Positions 6,550 through 55,809 of a stretch of 64,000 bases of DNA are shown here, piece by piece (positions within the stretch are counted from its first letter, which is position 1; the number at the start of each line of letters is the position of its first letter). The position numbers were made by a program, and so were the translations under genes. Location of the stretch: contig JACPCX010000185.1 of assembly GCA_016184305.1 (NCBI GenBank), positions 16,046-80,045 on the forward strand, written 5' to 3'. The DNA comes from Candidatus Rokuibacteriota bacterium (GTDB taxonomy: Bacteria > Methylomirabilota > Methylomirabilia > Rokubacteriales > CSP1-6). The notes beneath the pieces are model-generated. The model was given only the letters and a program-made list of their open reading frames with translations, did not search any database and was not told the origin of the DNA.

Positions 6550-6575
6550 CCGTCCCGGTTGACAGGACGCCCCGA

Positions 6576-6633
6576 TGAGCGCCAGAGGCGCGAAGAGGCC
6601 CAACGGCCAAACCGAAGTCATCCACATTCAGGC
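6576..6633 (+). repeat. Class I 62-nt-family repeat, single copy
   Basis: ATGAGCGCCAGAGGCGCGAAGAGGCCCAACGGCCAAACCGAAGTCATCCACATTCAGGC. Same family as 37889.., 48572.. and 54271.. Sits between the CGS-like gene and pdxS. Confidence 0.75.
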
Positions 6634-7536: not shown

Positions 7537-7668
7537 GGCGAGCCGAGGCGTGCCGCACGACGAGGCGAGCGGACATGGCAATCTCCCCGAGCGGAGCGAG
7601 GGGGCGAGCCGAGGCGTGCCGCACGACGAGGCGAGCGGAGAGGGAAATCCCCCGAGCGGAGCGAGGAG
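7537..7668 (+). repeat. Class II repeat, 2 x 66 bp tandem between pdxS and pdxT
   Basis: GGCGAGCCGAGGCGTGCCGCACGACGAGGCGAGCGGA(C/G)A(T/G)GG(C/A)AATC(T/C)CCCCGAGCGGAGCGAGG occurs twice (starts 7537 and 7603). Confidence 0.85.
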
Positions 7669-23861: not shown

Positions 23862-23922
23862 GGCGAGGCGCAGCCGAAGGCGAGCCGAGCGGATATGGAG
23901 ATCCCCCGAGCGGAGCGAGGCG
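23862..23922 (+). repeat. Class II repeat, single copy at the ilvC-psd junction
   Basis: ...GGCGAGCCGAGCGGATATGGAGATCCCCCGAGCGGAGCGAGGCGG matches the 3' half of the 7537..7668 units. Confidence 0.7.
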
Positions 23923-23930
23923 GCAGCGGC

Positions 23931-37408: not shown

Positions 37409-37892
37409 GCTGAGCCGCGTCATCCTGACGCCGGAGGAGCTCACCCAGGTCCAGGCGCAGGCGCTTGCCGAGTACCCGGCCGAGTGCTGTGGCGTCCTCC
37501 TGATCCGGCCCTCGCGACCCGAGGATCGCTTGCTCCTGCCGTGCCGCAACATCCAGGACGAGCTGCACACGAAGGACCCGGCCCGGCACCCTCGTGATGC
37601 CCGGACCGCCTACTACATCGACCCGAGAGATCTCCTCACCATTGGACGCCGAGAGGCGGGGGGGTACCGCGTGGCCACCATCTACCACTCCCACATCGAC
37701 ACGGGCGCGTACTTCTCCGACACCGACAAGCGCAACGCGCTGATCAACGGGGAGCCGGCCTACCCGGACGCCGTCTACGTGGTCCTTTCCGTCGTGGAGG
37801 GGAAGGCGGCGGGCGCCGGCGCCTTCGCCTGGGAGCCCACCCGCCGCGACTTCGTCCCGGCCGACTTCCCAGCCCAGGTGAGTGCCCGATGA
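37353..37892 (+). CDS. mec: JAMM/MPN+ metalloprotease (Mec/QbsD-like)
   Basis: ...[12 protein letters not shown]... and JAMM motif [16 protein letters not shown]. Start uncertain: TTG 37353 (inside duplication unit 1) or CTG 37410. No ATG or GTG is available. Confidence 0.85.
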
Positions 37893-37975
37893 GCGCCGCA
37901 GGCGCGAAGAGGCCGAACCGCAACCCGAAATCCTCCACAGTCAGGCGACCCGAACAGACCGCCGCAGGCGCGAAG
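37889..37975 (+). repeat. Class I repeat copy plus a partial second unit, forming the 5' end of hemL
   Basis: ATGAGCGCCGCAGGCGCGAAGAGGCCGAACCGCAACCCGAAATCCTCCACAGTCAGGCGACCCG, then the partial unit GCCGCAGGCGCGAAG at 37961..37975. Confidence 0.75.
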
Positions 37976-39551: not shown

Positions 39552-39699
39552 GCAGGATGCGGAAAAACTCCGCAGGGCGCTCAAAAAGGTCCAGGTGCGA
39601 GGCGGCGAGGGATGCGACGAGCGAGGCGTACTCCGCTTGGCGAGCCGAGCCGGAGGCGAGGTGAGCGGATCCGGAGATCCGGGCGAGCGTGAGCGAGCC
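39552..39699. repeat. Mosaic repeat element (copy B; inverted relative to copy A at 1114..1282)
   Basis: GCAGGATGCGGAAAAACTCCGCAGGGCGCTCAAAAAGGTCCAGGTGCGAGGCGGCG...GCGAGGCGTACTC...GGATCCGGAGATCCGGGCGAGCGTGAGCGAGCC. Contains the actB GTG start. Confidence 0.75.
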
Positions 39700-44961: not shown

Positions 44962-46088
44962 CCCCGACAGCCTCGACCGCACAACCGCCGCAGGGGTCGC
45001 AGGCGGTCCTCGTCGCGCTCGCCGTGGCGGGCGCCGCCGCCTTCGTCTACGGCATCATGCAGCCTCAGCCGACCCGCGCCTGGGGGATGTACCTGGTCAA
45101 CCTCCTCTTCTGGTCGAGCCTGGCCATCACGGGACCGGCGCTGGCCGGGATGATGCAGCTCACCGAGGCGCGCTGGTCCCCGAGCGTGAAGCGGATCGCG
45201 CTGACCACGGCCGGCTTCCTGCCGATCTCGTTCGTCCTCTTCCTGATCCTCTTCGCCGGTCGGTCGGTGCTCTACCCGTGGGTGACGACGCCTGTGCCGG
45301 TGAAGGCGGCGTGGCTCAACGTGCCCTTCATGTCGCTCCGCATCGGTCTCGGCGTGGCGCTGCTCTACTGGGTGGCGCTTCGCTTCTCCCGGGCGGTGTT
45401 CGACGAGCAGACGGGCGCCGCCGACAGCGCCGAGGCCCGCAACCGCCGCAACCGGCTGGCCACCGCGCTCCTGGTCCTCTTCGTGGTGGTGCTGTCGCTC
45501 TGGGGCTTCGACCTGGTGATGTCCCTGGATCCCAGGTGGTTCAGCGGCCTCCTGGGCGGCTACTACGTGGTCAGCACGCTCTACACGGGCTTCGGCCTCG
45601 TGACGTTCCTCACCATCCGCGCCAACGCCCGCGGGCTCACCAGCGTCTCGCCGTCCGCCATCCAGGATGTGGCGAAGCTCACCTTCGCCATGTGCGTCAT
45701 GTGGATGTACTTCTTCTTCTCGCAGTACCTCGTGATCTGGTACGGCAACGTGCCCGTGGAGACCAAGTTCTTCCTGCGGCGCTTCTTCAATGACCCGTGG
45801 CGGACGATGGCCTTTGTCATCTTCATCGTGGGCTGGCTCGTCCCCTTCGGCTACCTGCTCAAGCGGCTCACGGGACGGCCGCCCACGGCCCACAAGCCGC
45901 TGGTCGTGATCCTCTTCATGGGATGGGCGGCCATCTTCCTCGAGCGGATCCTGCTGGTCTTCCCGGCGCTCGCGCCGGACGACGTCTTCCCGTTCGGCCT
46001 GATGGAGATCCTCATCACGGCGGGGTTCTTCGCGCTCTTCGCGCTCGGCCGCAACCGCTTCCTGTCCCGCTACGGGCCCCTCCTGTAG
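44958..46088 (+). CDS. actF: Alternative complex III membrane subunit ActF (NrfD-like)
   Basis: 376-aa polytopic protein starting MTPTASTAQPP... ATGA overlap with actE. Confidence 0.82.
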   Translation: MTPTASTAQPPQGSQAVLVALAVAGAAAFVYGIMQPQPTRAWGMYLVNLLFWSSLAITGPALAGMMQLTEARWSPSVKRIALTTAGFLPISFVLFLILFAGRSVLYPWVTTPVPVKAAWLNVPFMSLRIGLGVALLYWVALRFSRAVFDEQTGAADSAEARNRRNRLATALLVLFVVVLSLWGFDLVMSLDPRWFSGLLGGYYVVSTLYTGFGLVTFLTIRANARGLTSVSPSAIQDVAKLTFAMCVMWMYFFFSQYLVIWYGNVPVETKFFLRRFFNDPWRTMAFVIFIVGWLVPFGYLLKRLTGRPPTAHKPLVVILFMGWAAIFLERILLVFPALAPDDVFPFGLMEILITAGFFALFALGRNRFLSRYGPLL

Positions 46089-46227
46089 GGGTCAGGTCTT
46101 GCATTCCGACATCGGCAGGCGTACGGCCTTGCCTTGGGATGTGGGCGGGGCACTGGTCATCCTGTACCGCTGCGAGCGCAACAGCGATGGAGCCGGGGCT
46201 AGGTGTCGGAATGCAAGACCTGACCCC
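46088..46227. repeat. 140-bp element closed by a perfect 24-bp inverted repeat
   Basis: GGGGTCAGGTCTTGCATTCCGACA (46088..46111) and its exact reverse complement TGTCGGAATGCAAGACCTGACCCC (46204..46227), enclosing 92 nt. Lies between the actF stop and the moeA start. Confidence 0.85.
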
Positions 46228-46253
46228 CTCGCGCCCGGTGCTACACTGGGCGC

Positions 46254-47477: not shown

Positions 47478-48528
47478 GGAAGAGCGCCCAGAGGGCCAGC
47501 CAGGCGCCGAGCGCCATCGAGGCGAAGGTGACGAGGCTGCCGACGCTGAGCGTGGCGGAGTTGGTCAGTCCCTGATTGATATTGCACCCCTCGGCGAGAA
47601 GGGCCGCGCCGCCCATCAAGAGCCCTCCCCCGAAGATCTTCAGGAGGCTCCACCCCGGAGGCAGCTTCAAGCGGAAGTCGCCCGCCCGCCAGGCTCCCGC
47701 GAAGGCGCCCACAGGCACGCCGAGCAGCATCACCATGCTCCAGGTGACCTGGGTCGGGTATCCGACGAGCGGGTAGGTGAGCAGGTAACCCGTGTTGGAC
47801 GCGAACGTGATGCCGGCGGGACGGCTCCCGAAGCCGGACGCCCACCAGCCCGCTGCGATCATCACCCCGACCGCGATCCCCGTCATCGGCCACGACCACT
47901 TGCCGTGCTCGGGTTGGGCTCGCTCACGCTCGCCCGGATTCCCATATCCGCCCGCCTCGCCGCGGCGGCCGCCGCTCAGCTGGCCAGGCAGTGGCCGCGC
48001 CAGCCAGACGGCGGCGGAGGCTGCGAGCACCGCGATGACGACCCACGGCGAGACGCCGACGAGCCCGTGGAGCGTCGGCGCCGCACCGCCGAGGGTGACG
48101 GCCGGCGCTTGCAGCCACGTCCGCACCGGGGCCAGCACGCCGACGCTGACGGTGGTCGCGCCCATGGCGAAGCCGAGGAGCACGACGCAGGCTCCGATGG
48201 CGCCCTCGCCGACGCGATACCACGTGCTCCCCGAGCAGCCGCCGGAGAGGATCATGCCCACGCCGAAGAGCCCCCCGCCCAGGATGTTGGCGACCCAGCG
48301 GAACGGCCGGATGGGCACCTCGATGAGTCCGAGCGCCATGAGCGTGTGCACGCCGATCATGGCGACCAGGAGCGCCAGCACGTAGGCGCGGAGGATCGTG
48401 GTGTCTCCCATGAGGACGGCGTTGGACAGCGCGCGCGTGAGACAGAAGCCGCCTCGCTGGAGCACGTACCCGAAGAGGAGGCCGGTGAGCAGCGCCGAGA
48501 CGTACAGGGCCCAGTTGAAGTCGTCCAT
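47464..48528 (-). CDS. yeeE: YeeE/YedE family sulfur-compound (thiosulfate-type) transporter
   Basis: 354 aa, two homologous halves, each with ...GGFC.../...GGCSGS.../...AEGCN... type motifs. The linker contains a repeat-derived segment. Confidence 0.88.
   Translation of the reverse strand: MDDFNWALYVSALLTGLLFGYVLQRGGFCLTRALSNAVLMGDTTILRAYVLALLVAMIGVHTLMALGLIEVPIRPFRWVANILGGGLFGVGMILSGGCSGSTWYRVGEGAIGACVVLLGFAMGATTVSVGVLAPVRTWLQAPAVTLGGAAPTLHGLVGVSPWVVIAVLAASAAVWLARPLPGQLSGGRRGEAGGYGNPGERERAQPEHGKWSWPMTGIAVGVMIAAGWWASGFGSRPAGITFASNTGYLLTYPLVGYPTQVTWSMVMLLGVPVGAFAGAWRAGDFRLKLPPGWSLLKIFGGGLLMGGAALLAEGCNINQGLTNSATLSVGSLVTFASMALGAWLALWALFLRAP
47917..47960 (-). repeat. Class II repeat unit embedded in-frame in the yeeE inter-domain linker
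   Basis: GGCTCGCTCACGCTCGCCCGGATTCCCATATCCGCCCGCCTCGC closely matches the reverse complement of the 23876..23922 unit. Translates within yeeE as ...RRGEAGGYGNPGERERAQP... Confidence 0.7.
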
Positions 48529-48571: not shown

Positions 48572-48632
48572 ATGAGCGCTTGCGCGAAGAGGCCCAACCG
48601 CGACGCGAGGTCCTCCACAGTCAGGCGACCCC
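48572..48632 (+). repeat. Class I repeat, single copy
   Basis: ATGAGCGCTTGCGCGAAGAGGCCCAACCGCGACGCGAGGTCCTCCACAGTCAGGCGACCCC, upstream of the YbgF-like gene. Confidence 0.75.
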
Positions 48633-52838: not shown

Positions 52839-53723
52839 GTGAGCCAGCAGGTATCCGATTCCGTCGCGGCCTTCCTCGCCTATCTGGAGGCCGAGCGGGG
52901 CGCCTCGCCCCACACCCTCAGGGGCTACGCGGCCGACCTCGCGGAGTTCCAGCACTTCCTCCGGGAGCAGGGCGTCCGCGGGCTCACGGAGGTGGACGCG
53001 CGGCTCCTGCGGGCGTATCTGGTGCGGCTGTATCAGCGGCGGCTCGCCAAGAGCAGCATCGCGCGCAAGCTCGCCTCGGTGAGGAGCTGCTTCCGGTTCC
53101 TCACGCGCCGCGGGCTCCTCGAGAGCAACCCCGCCCGACAGGTGCGGACGCCGAGCGCGCCGCGCCGGCTGCCGTCCTTCCTCCCCAAGGACGAGTCGAA
53201 GGAGCTGCTGGACCGGCCCGTGGACGCCTCCGGGGCCGGACGCCGGGACCACGCGCTCCTGGAACTGCTCTACGCGAGCGGACTGCGCGTCGCCGAGTGC
53301 TGCGGTCTCGATCTCGATGACCTGGATCGGCACCGCGCGACGGTCCGGGTCCTCGGCAAGGGAGACAAGGAGCGGGTGGTGCCCGTCGGCGATGAGGCGC
53401 TCGCCGCGCTCGACGCCTACCTGGCCCTTCGCGGGGAGGGGCGGGGGGCGCTGTTCCGGAACCACAGGGGAGGCCGGCTCACGACGCGCAGCGTCCACCG
53501 GATCGTGAAGCGGCTGGCCCGCGCCGCCGGGATCACCCGGCGCGTGTCGCCTCACACCTTGCGCCACACCTTCGCCACCCACATGCTGGGCGAGGGGGCC
53601 GACCTGCGGCTCATCCAGGAGCTCCTGGGGCATCGCCGCCTGTCCACCACCCAGCGGTACACCCATGTGAGCCCCGAACATCTGATGAAGGTGTACGACA
53701 GGGCGCATCCGAGGGCGACATGA
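52839..53723 (+). CDS. xerC: Tyrosine recombinase XerC
   Basis: ...[19 protein letters not shown]...[12 protein letters not shown]...[34 protein letters not shown]. Conserved dprA-topA-xerC-hslVU context. GTG 52839. Confidence 0.9.
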
Positions 53724-54274
53724 GGGACCTCGACGGGCTCTCGCGCTTCCACGCCACGACGGTGCTCTGCGTCCGCCACCGGGGCCATGTGGCCATCGGC
53801 GGAGACGGGCAGGTGTCCATCGGGCAGACGGTGGTCAAGGCCGCGGCGCGGAAGGTCCGGAAGATCCACCACGGCCGGGTGCTCGCCGGCTTCGCCGGCG
53901 CGGCGGCGGACGCCTTCACGCTCTTCGGCAAGTTCGAGTCCAAGCTCGAGGAGCATCGCGGGAACCTGCCGCGGGCGGCCGTGGAGCTGGCCAAGGACTG
54001 GCGACTCGACCGCGTGCTGCGCCGCCTCGAGGCCTTGCTGGCGGTGGCGGACGCCGAGTCGTCCTTCATCATCTCGGGCACGGGCGACGTCATCGAGCCC
54101 GACGACGGGCTGATCGGCATCGGCTCCGGCGGGCCCTATGCGCTGGCCGCCGCGCGCGCTCTCTGCGCGCACTCCGAGCTGGATGCCACGGCCATCGCCG
54201 AGCAGGCCCTCCGCATCGCGGCGGAGATCTGCGTCTACACCAACGACCACATCACGGTCGAGGTGCTCGAATGA
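53720..54274 (+). CDS. hslV: ATP-dependent protease subunit HslV
   Basis: ...[23 protein letters not shown]... (N-terminal Thr after processing) ...[14 protein letters not shown]... Confidence 0.95.
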
Positions 54275-54456
54275 GCGCTTGCGCGAAGAAGCCCAGCCGC
54301 AAGGTGAAGTCATCCACATTCAGGCGACCCGGATGAGCGCTTGCGCGAAGAAGCCCAGCCGCAAGGTGAAGTCATCCACATTCAGGCGACCCGGATGAGC
54401 GCTTGCGCGAAGAAGCCCAGCCGCGAGGTGAAGTCATCCACATTCAGGCGACCCGG
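54271..54456 (+). repeat. Class I repeat, 3 x 62 bp near-perfect tandem array between hslV and hslU
   Basis: ATGAGCGCTTGCGCGAAGAAGCCCAGCCGC(A/G)AGGTGAAGTCATCCACATTCAGGCGACCCGG starts at 54271, 54333 and 54395. The hslU ATG (54457) sits where a fourth unit would start. Confidence 0.95.
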
Positions 54457-55809
54457 ATGAACGCGCTCACGCCCGCCCAGATCGTCACCGAGCTGGACCG
54501 GTACATCGTGGGCCAGGAGCGGGCCAAGCGCGCCGTGGCCATCGCGCTCAGGAACCGCTGGCGCCGCCAGAACCTGCCGCCGGGGCTGCGGGACGAGGTG
54601 GCGCCGAAGAACATCATCATGATCGGGCCCACGGGCGTCGGGAAGACGGAGATCGCCCGGCGGCTCGCCAAGCTCTCCCAGGCGCCCTTCCTCAAGGTCG
54701 AGGCCTCCAAGTACACCGAGGTGGGTTACGTGGGCCGGGACGTGGAGTCCATGATCCGCGACCTGACGGAGCTCTCGGTGACCATGGTGAAGGCCGAGAT
54801 GGCGGCGGCGGTGCGGGAAAAAGCCGAGGCCCAGGCCGAGGAGCGGCTGCTGGACCTCCTGCTGCCGCGCCGGCCCGGCGAGGCCTTCACGAGTAGCACC
54901 CTCGAGGAGGTGTCCCAGGACGCCTCCCGGGACGCCACGCGGGAGAAGCTCCGGGCCCAGCTGCGGGCAGGCAAGCTCGACGATCGCGCCATCGAGATGG
55001 ACGTGTCCGACCAGTCGAACCCGATGCTCCAGGTCTTCTCGGGGCAGGGGATGGAGGAGGTCGGCATCAACCTCAAGGACATGCTGTCCCAGATCCTCCC
55101 CGGCCGGACCCGGCGGCGCCGGCTCAAGATCGGGGAGGCCCGCCGGCTCCTCGAGCAGGAGGAGGCCCAGAAGCTCGTGGACGCGGAGGAGGCCGTGGCG
55201 CAGGCCATCGTGCGCGTGGAGAACTCCGGGATCATCTTCCTGGACGAGCTGGACAAGATCGCGGGGCGCGAGGGCGGGCACGGGCCGGAGGTCTCCCGGC
55301 AGGGGGTGCAGCGGGATCTCCTGCCCATCGTGGAGGGCTCCACGGTGACGACCAAGTACGGGATGGTGCGCACGGACCACATCCTGTTCATCGCCGCGGG
55401 CGCCTTCCACGTGGCGAAGCCCTCCGACCTCATCCCGGAGCTGCAGGGCCGCTTCCCCATCCGGGTGGAGCTTGAGCCCTTGACGCGCGGGGACTTTGTC
55501 CGCATTCTGAGCGAGCCGGAGAACGCCCTGACCCGCCAGTACGTGGAGCTGCTGAAGACGGAGGGCGTCTCGCTCCAGTTCAAGCCCGACGCCGTGGAGG
55601 CCGTGGCCGAGATCGCCTCCCTGGTAAACCAGCGGACGGAGAACATCGGGGCGCGGCGGCTCTACACGATCATGGAGAAGGTCCTGGACGAGATCTCGTT
55701 CTCGGCTCCGGACATGGCAGGCAAGGAGATCGTCATCGACGCGGACTACGTGCAGGCGCGGCTGGCCGAGGTCCTCCAGGACGAGGACCTGTCGCGCTAC
55801 ATCCTCTAG
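54457..55809 (+). CDS. hslU: ATP-dependent protease ATPase subunit HslU
   Basis: [31 protein letters not shown]...[16 protein letters not shown]...IIFLDELDK... The track start at 54403 lies in the repeat. Confidence 0.96.

Follow-up and report, generated by a model that had tools for sequence, protein, structure and literature searches.

Mycobacterial interspersed repetitive units (MIRUs) have been in use as typing markers for decades. The MIRUs of Supply et al. (1997), as they are described in PMC12548453 and PMC3184786, are units of 40-100 bp that occur about 40-50 times per genome and carry open reading frames (ORFs) overlapping the neighbouring genes. They are thought to insert at start codons, with the MIRU ORF coupled to the gene at -4, and their filled sites carry tetranucleotide direct repeats (PMC3184786, PMC12548453). 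Here we describe an array of three 62-bp tandem repeats between hslV and hslU in a 64,000-nt stretch of DNA (contig JACPCX010000185.1, assembly GCA_016184305.1; hereafter the window) from a metagenome-assembled genome (MAG) of Rokubacteria. This array is probably an allele, with three copies, of an interspersed repeat family of Rokubacteria (Methylomirabilota) that resembles the MIRUs. The interest lies in the family, with its convergent design and clean target rule; the single locus is ordinary.

What characterizes the MIRU kind, namely the size and dispersal of the units, their co-directional location at -4 overlaps, a tetranucleotide at filled sites and variable-number tandem repeat (VNTR) behaviour, was found in the Rokubacteria family as well. 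Both families consist of 40-100-bp units that form direct tandem arrays at tens of loci, lie in the intercistronic gaps of operons and are oriented with the genes; in both, the ends of the internal ORF overlap the stop and start codons of the neighbours (-4), filled sites carry tetranucleotide repeats, the units contain GC-rich internal inverted repeats and the copy number varies between strains. The Rokubacteria family differs in its host, which belongs to the Methylomirabilota and not to the Actinomycetota, in a sharply defined head (GATGA, hairpin, GAAGAGGCC) with compensatory covariation, in the conversion of GTGA to ATGA on both sides of the element, and in arrays that are in some cases read as C- or N-terminal protein extensions. 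The two were set beside each other by their descriptions, not by sequence; on that footing the closest known analogue of the Rokubacteria family is the mycobacterial MIRU, and the family would be a new, MIRU-analogous one and no member of the MIRUs, homology being unlikely given the phylum.

Other short repeats share part of this design. Rickettsia palindromic elements (RPEs) are short palindromic repeats that can be tolerated in reading frames, having been inserted in-frame within genes; an extension of IspD and an in-frame unit in hemL recall them, but the Rokubacteria family typically lies at the junction between genes, whereas RPEs lie inside them. Repetitive extragenic palindromic (REP) sequences, the bacterial interspersed mosaic elements (BIMEs) that contain them and REP doublets forming hairpins (REPINs) resemble the family in their short GC hairpin of variable sequence and conserved structure beside a conserved motif, their extragenic position and their tens to hundreds of copies. 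REPs, however, form inverted pairs or mosaics that disregard reading frames, whereas the Rokubacteria units are strictly direct, gene-oriented and codon-registered. The intergenic repeats of Borrelia and the REP2 repeats of Neisseria also carry promoters, unlike the Rokubacteria family, and in the account of PMC3184786 they are not described on stop/start overlaps or as frame-chained tandem arrays. In the literature we found no paper on such repeats in Rokubacteria.

The repeat array between hslV and hslU

The window derives from a 3.2-Mb MAG of 70% GC and 89% completeness (G000), assigned to the Rokubacteria/Methylomirabilota; the closest relatives of its HslU are likewise from Candidatus Methylomirabilota/Rokubacteria MAGs, and two congeneric genomes (G037 and G114) served for comparison. 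At 54271-54456 (all coordinates are window positions unless a contig is named), three head-to-tail units fill the exact interval between the hslV stop, which lies in an ATGA, and the hslU ATG. Tandem Repeats Finder (TRF) called 54271-54464 with a period of 62, 3.1 copies, 98% matches and a score of 374, the sole high-scoring array in the window. The parts of the locus are as follows.

53720-54274, + strand: hslV, 184 aa (ORF list; PF00227 Proteasome; orthologs)
54271-54332, + strand: repeat unit 1, 62 bp, starting with ATGA and ending with CCCGG
54275-54284, + strand: hairpin of unit 1, GCGC-TT-GCGC
54285-54293, + strand: GAAGAAGCC of unit 1, directly after the hairpin
54309-54327, + strand: conserved tail of unit 1, GTCATCCACATTCAGGCGA, followed by CCCGG
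54271-54336, + strand: mini-ORF 1, 21 codons plus TGA, beginning on the hslV stop ATGA and finishing on the next ATGA
54333-54394, + strand: repeat unit 2, same sequence as unit 1, with its hairpin at 54337-54346
54333-54398, + strand: mini-ORF 2, chained like mini-ORF 1
54395-54456, + strand: repeat unit 3, with G at 54425 (Lys to Glu in the mini-ORF) and its hairpin at 54399-54408
54395-54460, + strand: mini-ORF 3, chained like mini-ORF 1
54434-54460, + strand: predicted start-masking helix, UCAUCC (54434-54439) with GGAUGA (54455-54460), a Shine-Dalgarno (SD)-like AGGCGA lying in the loop
54457-55809, + strand: hslU, 450 aa, its ATG belonging to the terminal ATGA, where a fourth unit would start

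The analysis confirmed the first-pass annotation of this DNA, which had read the interval as three 62-bp units with one A/G difference at unit position 31: the units start at 54271, 54333 and 54395, the first two are identical, and the third carries the A>G substitution. The 58-nt core of the unit had no match in 100 shuffles. The coordinates of the hslV stop and the hslU start also bear out the claim that the array parts the two subunits of one protease, by a gap of 182 nt. Because the units abut head to tail without any spacer, the array is, as had been stated, not a CRISPR array.

The TGA of hslV (54272-54274) falls inside the ATGA that opens unit 1. The ATG-led frame noted earlier in each unit is real and forms one ORF of 21 codons (K11E in unit 3), the TGA of which overlaps the next ATG, so that the chain from hslV through the three mini-ORFs to hslU is joined by -4 overlaps throughout. 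Each of these ORFs is preceded by the SD-like AGGCGA; the 16S 3' end, sought for an anti-SD comparison, was not found in this MAG.

A dispersed family with a covarying hairpin

An iterated nhmmer search of the genome recovered 62 units, grouped in 32 clusters and spread over about 24 contigs, in arrays of 1-4 units with periods of 61-111 nt. The family is thus dispersed, as had been proposed, and extends to other genomes; it is not restricted to this contig. Its head consists of (CCC)C-GATGA, a GC hairpin of 3-5 bp and the invariant GAAGAGGCC. An optional long tail, nAACCGCnAnnnGAnGTCATCCACATTCAGGCGA, leads through a linker of 4-9 nt to an ATG or through a purine-rich linker of 12 nt to the next hairpin, and an alternative short tail, CCGGTGATGCGGACGCCCC, runs directly into the next head. 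All copies in the genome scan are direct and none stands in an inverted pair. Terminal inverted repeats of the kind found in miniature inverted-repeat transposable elements were not seen in an alignment of 45 units, where the sole inverted match was GATGA/TCATC, with TCATC about 20 nt inside the 3' end.

As a structure of the unit the hairpin alone is supported, and it is selected for that structure. Among 38 distinct 13-nt stem-loops, 93.7% of cells were paired, against 71.2% in shuffles; the covariation score was 0.419, which none of 500 shuffles reached (0.085 in shuffles), sliding the register by 1-3 columns gave at most 0.087, and G-C to C-G swaps occurred in three of the five pairs. Across several genomes, 233 units carried 80 different stem-loops. 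No asymmetry between G.U and A.C was seen, the stems being almost purely G-C, and this test cannot separate selection on RNA from selection on single-stranded DNA. An all-against-all column scan on either strand found no covarying pair other than the hairpin, which disposes of the proposal that CAGGCG of one unit pairs with CGCUUG of the next as a feature of the family: the tail CAGGCG is constant, and the hairpin is free to vary (GCCC.., GGGCC.., GCGCC..).

Within the window three solo copies of the family accompany the array. The first-pass annotation had placed single copies at 6576, 37889 and 48572; the ATGA lies at the latter two positions as claimed, and for the other it begins one base earlier, at 6575.

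6575-6633, + strand: solo copy with hairpin GCGCC-AGA-GGCGC, then AAGGAG and an ATG 22 nt downstream
37889-37960, + strand: solo copy where hemL starts; compared with G037 it is an additional 66-nt unit, flanked by direct repeats CGCCGCAGGCGCGAAG
48572-48628, + strand: solo copy in a divergent intergenic region, missing in G114 and with no NTGA overlap

At hemL, the head ATGAGCGCCGCAGGCGCGAAG codes for the N-terminus of HemL (MSAAGAK...) in G037. In the window the extra 66-nt unit is in frame between 16-nt direct repeats, and for HemL of the window this may mean an N-terminal insertion of 22 aa or the choice of a later start.

Searches with the pattern CGATGAG-N8-14-GAAGAGGCC, for which the reversed pattern was the control, delimited the family taxonomically. 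This genome has 48 occurrences of the head pattern and the two congeners have 77 and 61; genomes from four genera of the same family (g7, g13, g36 and g11) have 3-18, and counts were 0-2 across most of the phylum's other genera, families and classes. The control gave no hit in any genome but one (1 hit). In two genomes of other genera (G184 and G195), three 62-nt units lie between hydantoinase-type genes under the same context rule. With a stricter head-plus-tail pattern applied to all GTDB species, the 110 matches listed came almost only from Rokubacteria/Methylomirabilota MAGs, with a few soil MAGs. Exact head-plus-tail sequences among the matches listed included nine loci (L213, L226, L231, L251, L252, L258, L270, L278 and L279) from soil MAGs labelled Limnocylindria, Dormiibacterota, Deferrimicrobiaceae, Acidoferrum and Vicinamibacterales; these may be mis-binned Rokubacteria contigs or may reflect transfer of the element.

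Copy-number variation and filled and empty sites

The downstream flanks of 31 arrays were located in G037 and G114, and the 650 nt upstream were compared. Unit counts were unequal at most of these orthologous loci, for example (window genome/G037/G114) 3/1/1 at hslVU, 3/1/3 at guaA, 1/4/2 at C168:49634, 1/0/4 at hemL and 1/4/0 at C71, and at most loci where counts were compared the flanking genes were 95-99% identical. The family therefore shows minisatellite-like variation in copy number between close relatives, the behaviour of a VNTR.

Eleven pairs of filled and empty sites reveal where the units lie. In nine of them (hslVU; loci 13, 21, 22, 12 and 27 against G037; loci 2, 10 and 26 against G114) stop and start codons overlap in a 4-nt NTGA at the empty site, and xATGA brackets the filled array on both sides. 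Empty ATGA overlaps include TCATGAGGCAG (locus 13), GGCATGACATCC at hom/thrC and C71 in the comparison with G114; empty GTGA overlaps are seen at ispD/ispF, at coaE/ksgA and at loci 21, 2 and 10.

The hslV/hslU junction follows this pattern. In G037, where HslV is 99% identical and the flanks are 99% identical, it holds exactly one 62-bp unit (...CTCGGATGA-GCGCTTGCGC-GAAGAAGCC...GGCGACCTGGATGAACGCG), and G114, with an HslV of 89% identity, also has exactly one; in both congeners xATGA stands on each side of the single unit. No unit of the family was found at hslV/hslU in six genomes of two other genera or in the 18 closest loci of the public collection (L031-L048), where the junction is an ATGA (G200, CCATGAACGGG), a GTGA (L032, L035), a TGATG-type overlap or a short unrelated spacer. 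Since the congeners have one unit and the other genera none, this distribution indicates that the ancestor of the genus acquired one unit at an (A/G)TGA overlap between hslV and hslU, and that the tripling came later and is specific to the lineage of the window. The supposition that the ancestral state was an ATGA overlap regenerated by each unit is supported by the bare overlaps of the other genera and the xATGA-flanked single units of the congeners.

The unit of the window differs from that of G037 at 6 of 62 positions, about ten times the divergence of the flanks, with the differences concentrated in the variable core. The three units of the window are near-identical in comparison, which shows that their amplification is recent. 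The variable core of the window, CAAGGTGAAGTCATCC, was found again at C63:7646 and in G037 on contig C228, which suggests gene conversion or replacement between dispersed copies.

At ispD/ispF, outside the window (G000:C181:30900-31100), a two-unit array is read in frame as a C-terminal IspD extension of about 57 aa that finishes at AAATGACC, the ispF start, where G037 has a plain GTGA overlap. At locus 21 (G000:C3:3693-3770 against G037), the filled allele is strongly diverged for about 20 nt on each side, while the DNA farther away is 98-100% identical, and in the filled allele the downstream gene opens with codons richer in AT (ACTCCAAAGTACTCCTTG vs ACCCCGCGCTACGCGCTC).

Translational context and proposed mechanism

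Units are co-oriented with the flanking genes, and about 24 of the 32 arrays finish at most 28 nt upstream of a same-strand start codon. These starts read ATGA in 15 of 22 cases, whereas over the whole genome A follows ATG with a frequency of 0.24 (binomial p = 1.5e-5), and at least eight upstream genes stop at the TGA within the first GATGA. Of 232 distinct units, 144 have an ORF from the head ATG that finishes on NTGA; for ATGA sites taken at random the figure is 50 of 179 (Fisher p = 4.5e-12). From one head to the next, periods of 3n+1 are avoided: the remainder modulo 3 was 2 in 28 cases, 0 in 29 and 1 in 10 (chi-square p = 0.006). A chain of ORFs "reaches" a long upstream ORF in 17 of 29 arrays, a figure that was not relied on, as chance alone often yields long open frames at 70% GC. 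The AUG of hslU is held in the predicted helix, with a probability of being unpaired of about 0-0.03 (0/100 shuffles as low).

These observations support the following history of the array as a three-copy allele of the MIRU-like family. A single 62-bp unit came to lie in the (A/G)TGA at which hslV and hslU ancestrally overlapped; with ATGA at both of its boundaries, it leaves hslV a TGA stop and gives hslU an ATG start. In the lineage of the window the unit was then amplified to three near-identical copies, presumably through slipped-strand or unequal recombination, for which the ATGA(G/A)CGC microhomology that the unit start shares with the hslU start would have been the seed. As 62 is of the form 3n+2, a path of termination and reinitiation would be kept at any copy number. 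A ribosome relay from hslV to hslU through the mini-ORFs is possible, in which ribosomes leaving hslV would terminate and reinitiate by way of the three mini-ORFs into hslU. The native SD of hslU (GAGGTG, at the 3' end of hslV) would now serve mini-ORF 1, hslU would keep AGGCGA-N6-ATG, and translation of mini-ORF 3 in the relay could unmask the hslU AUG from its predicted pairing with UCAUCC. Because such a relay would carry ribosomes through, the element could be translationally 'transparent' and hence tolerated.

A bolder version of this history is conceivable, but we regard it as doubtful. In this version the family is an active, site-specific mobile cassette: dedicated machinery would paste units onto NTGA overlaps by means of the GATGA-hairpin-GAAGAGGCC head, overwriting GTG with ATG and bringing in an SD-like tail, and the relay together with the local masking helix would restore obligatory coupling. 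If this were so, the stoichiometry of operons, here HslV:HslU, would be tunable by copy number.

Several observations qualify, or weigh against, reading the array as an allele of a MIRU-like family with this history. Two of the 11 filled/empty pairs are exceptions to the NTGA rule, namely the solo copy in the divergent promoter region (48572) and the internal gain of 66 nt at hemL. Empty GTGA sites become ATGA on both sides when filled, the element supplying its own ATG, and the filled site at hom/thrC duplicates about 10 nt that include the region of the ribosome-binding site; because of these two findings, the insertions do not amount to a simple 4-bp target duplication. At most loci the pairwise comparison could represent insertion or precise deletion between ATGA repeats, outgroups having been available for hslVU only, and the three-unit copy number rests on two short-read MAG assemblies. 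Across the family, support for the relay is partial, and the relay would not be universal: about 38% of units end off NTGA, and multiple-of-3 periods are as common as 3n+2. Unit copies inside arrays are non-independent, which inflates the statistics of the family. As a family trait, masking of the start was not found (mean probability unpaired 0.42 vs 0.52 in shuffles; Wilcoxon p = 0.22), and its prediction is confined to hslU and three or four further loci. That ribosomes translate the mini-ORFs and reinitiate is our inference.

Alternative explanations

The selected hairpin lends itself to two other explanations. In one, the units are functional cis-acting RNAs (hammerhead-derived and self-cleaving, nuclease-targeted, or REP-like stabilisers) that process or stabilise the polycistronic mRNA, with the triple array selected to tune HslV:HslU. 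The CCGAUGA head, the covarying stem and the GAA mimic a hammerhead core with stem II and tandem G.A potential (xCGAUGA, stem and GAA, compared with CUGAUGA, stem II and GAA in RF00163, RF00008 and RF02275-7), GAAGAGGCC is invariant across genera irrespective of reading frame, and the units are strictly co-oriented with transcription. However, core position 4 is C instead of U, in a consensus of C-C-G-A-U-G-A (GGAUGA/GAAUGA at hslVU), the nucleotide following GAA is G for A15.1, helices I and III are absent, and no cleavage triplet, three-way junction partner outside stem II or covarying pair beyond the hairpin was found. The resemblance of the GAUGA to a hammerhead arises because stop and start codons supply it. 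Rfam gave no hit at E<=10 for the hslVU locus and 10 canonical-head loci, hammerhead covariance models included, and as regards other known ribozyme or RNA families these scans yielded chance hits only; both kinds of candidate were rejected. The minimum free energy of the array is no better than that of shuffles (z = +0.88 sense, +0.26 antisense), which rules out an unusually stable RNA structure, scans of the array found no promoter-like or terminator-like site, copy number varies freely among near-identical strains, and one unit suffices in the congeners. We judge a functional RNA unlikely. The other explanation, which we judge about as unlikely, is a REP-type or PATE-type (palindrome-associated transposable) element moved as single-stranded DNA by an HUH Y1 transposase, akin to those of IS200 or to REP-associated tyrosine transposases (RAYTs), that would recognise the hairpin and cut beside (G)ATGA, with NTGA as target tetranucleotide and tandem arrays formed by insertion after an identical right end. 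As in REPs, a conserved pentanucleotide lies directly 5' of a structure-selected, sequence-variable hairpin; the same ATGA occurs at both element boundaries; the lack of asymmetry between G.U and A.C makes selection at the level of single-stranded DNA possible; and the genome has one Y1_Tnp protein (PF01797, 49 bits). Although GATGA and the covarying hairpin match the REP form, stop/start codons explain the GATGA equally well. Moreover, the units have one hairpin each, are always direct and never form inverted REPIN or BIME pairs, and the duplication of about 10 nt at one filled site and the ATGA on both sides of former GTGA sites speak against such a mechanism. Unlike RAYT systems, the family does not stand beside the Y1 transposase gene of the genome, which is flanked by a different 25-nt repeat, and an association with a RAYT was rejected on this ground.

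The remaining explanations concern the array itself. Each unit might encode a functional, basic peptide of 21 residues, made in three copies, as the ATG-led ORF with its upstream SD-like AGGCGA would allow. Conservation, however, tracks nucleotides (GAAGAGGCC and the tail) rather than codons, and stem-loops of 10, 11, 12, 13 or 14 nt shift the reading frame between copies of the family, so that no peptide is conserved among its members. These frame shifts exclude a peptide gene, an idea we find hardly credible, and the ORFs of the units would be relay frames at best. It is very unlikely, too, that the assembler expanded or mis-resolved the 62-bp repeat and that one or two units are all that the population really has. 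The array of 186 bp is indeed longer than a typical short read, and both congeners have a single unit at this junction. Yet the usual error of assemblers with tandem repeats is collapse, not expansion, unit 3 is anchored by its substitution, and other genomes have arrays of three 62-nt units at other loci. In addition, an independent NCBI MAG contig (JACOVB010000457.1, GCA_016177555.1), 99.89% identical over 2817 nt with three mismatches and no gaps, shows these three units too, down to the A/G difference of unit 3; this agreement argues against an assembly artefact, although it is no substitute for spanning reads.

Implications

That an independent, unrelated family in an uncultured phylum of deep branching shows the MIRU design suggests that "translationally transparent" repeats colonising stop/start overlaps evolved convergently. 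The Rokubacteria family offers a cleaner handle on such repeats than MIRUs do, through its invariant head and covarying hairpin, its clear filled and empty alleles with flanks of 95-99% identity, and its conversion of GTGA to ATGA. For annotation, the arrays account for odd gaps of 60-200 nt, spurious small ORFs and N- or C-terminal extensions (hemL and ispD) in Rokubacteria MAGs, and they are likely hotspots for assembly error and strain-level variation. Lying between two subunits of one protease, the hslV/hslU array provides a natural test case for the relation of copy number to subunit ratio.

Other repeats in the genome

The Y1_Tnp gene (G000:C13:34222-35127, an ORF of 302 aa) has a 25-nt motif 60-90 nt upstream of its start. 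This motif is present on at least seven contigs and forms a perfect inverted pair between actF and moeA (46088-46111 and 46204-46228). Together, the gene and the motif are a candidate RAYT/REPIN system, separate from the GATGA-hairpin family.

At least one further repeat family, unrelated to that of the hslV/hslU array (core ...GAGCGGA..ATCCCCCGAGCGGAGCGAGG...), also occupies short intercistronic gaps, for example as 2 x 66 bp after pdxS, and occurs in both orientations in the window, at the following sites.

7537-7668: unrelated repeat family
23864-23924: unrelated repeat family
39655-39699: unrelated repeat family
47917-47961: unrelated repeat family
1225-1281/39551-39607: unrelated repeat family

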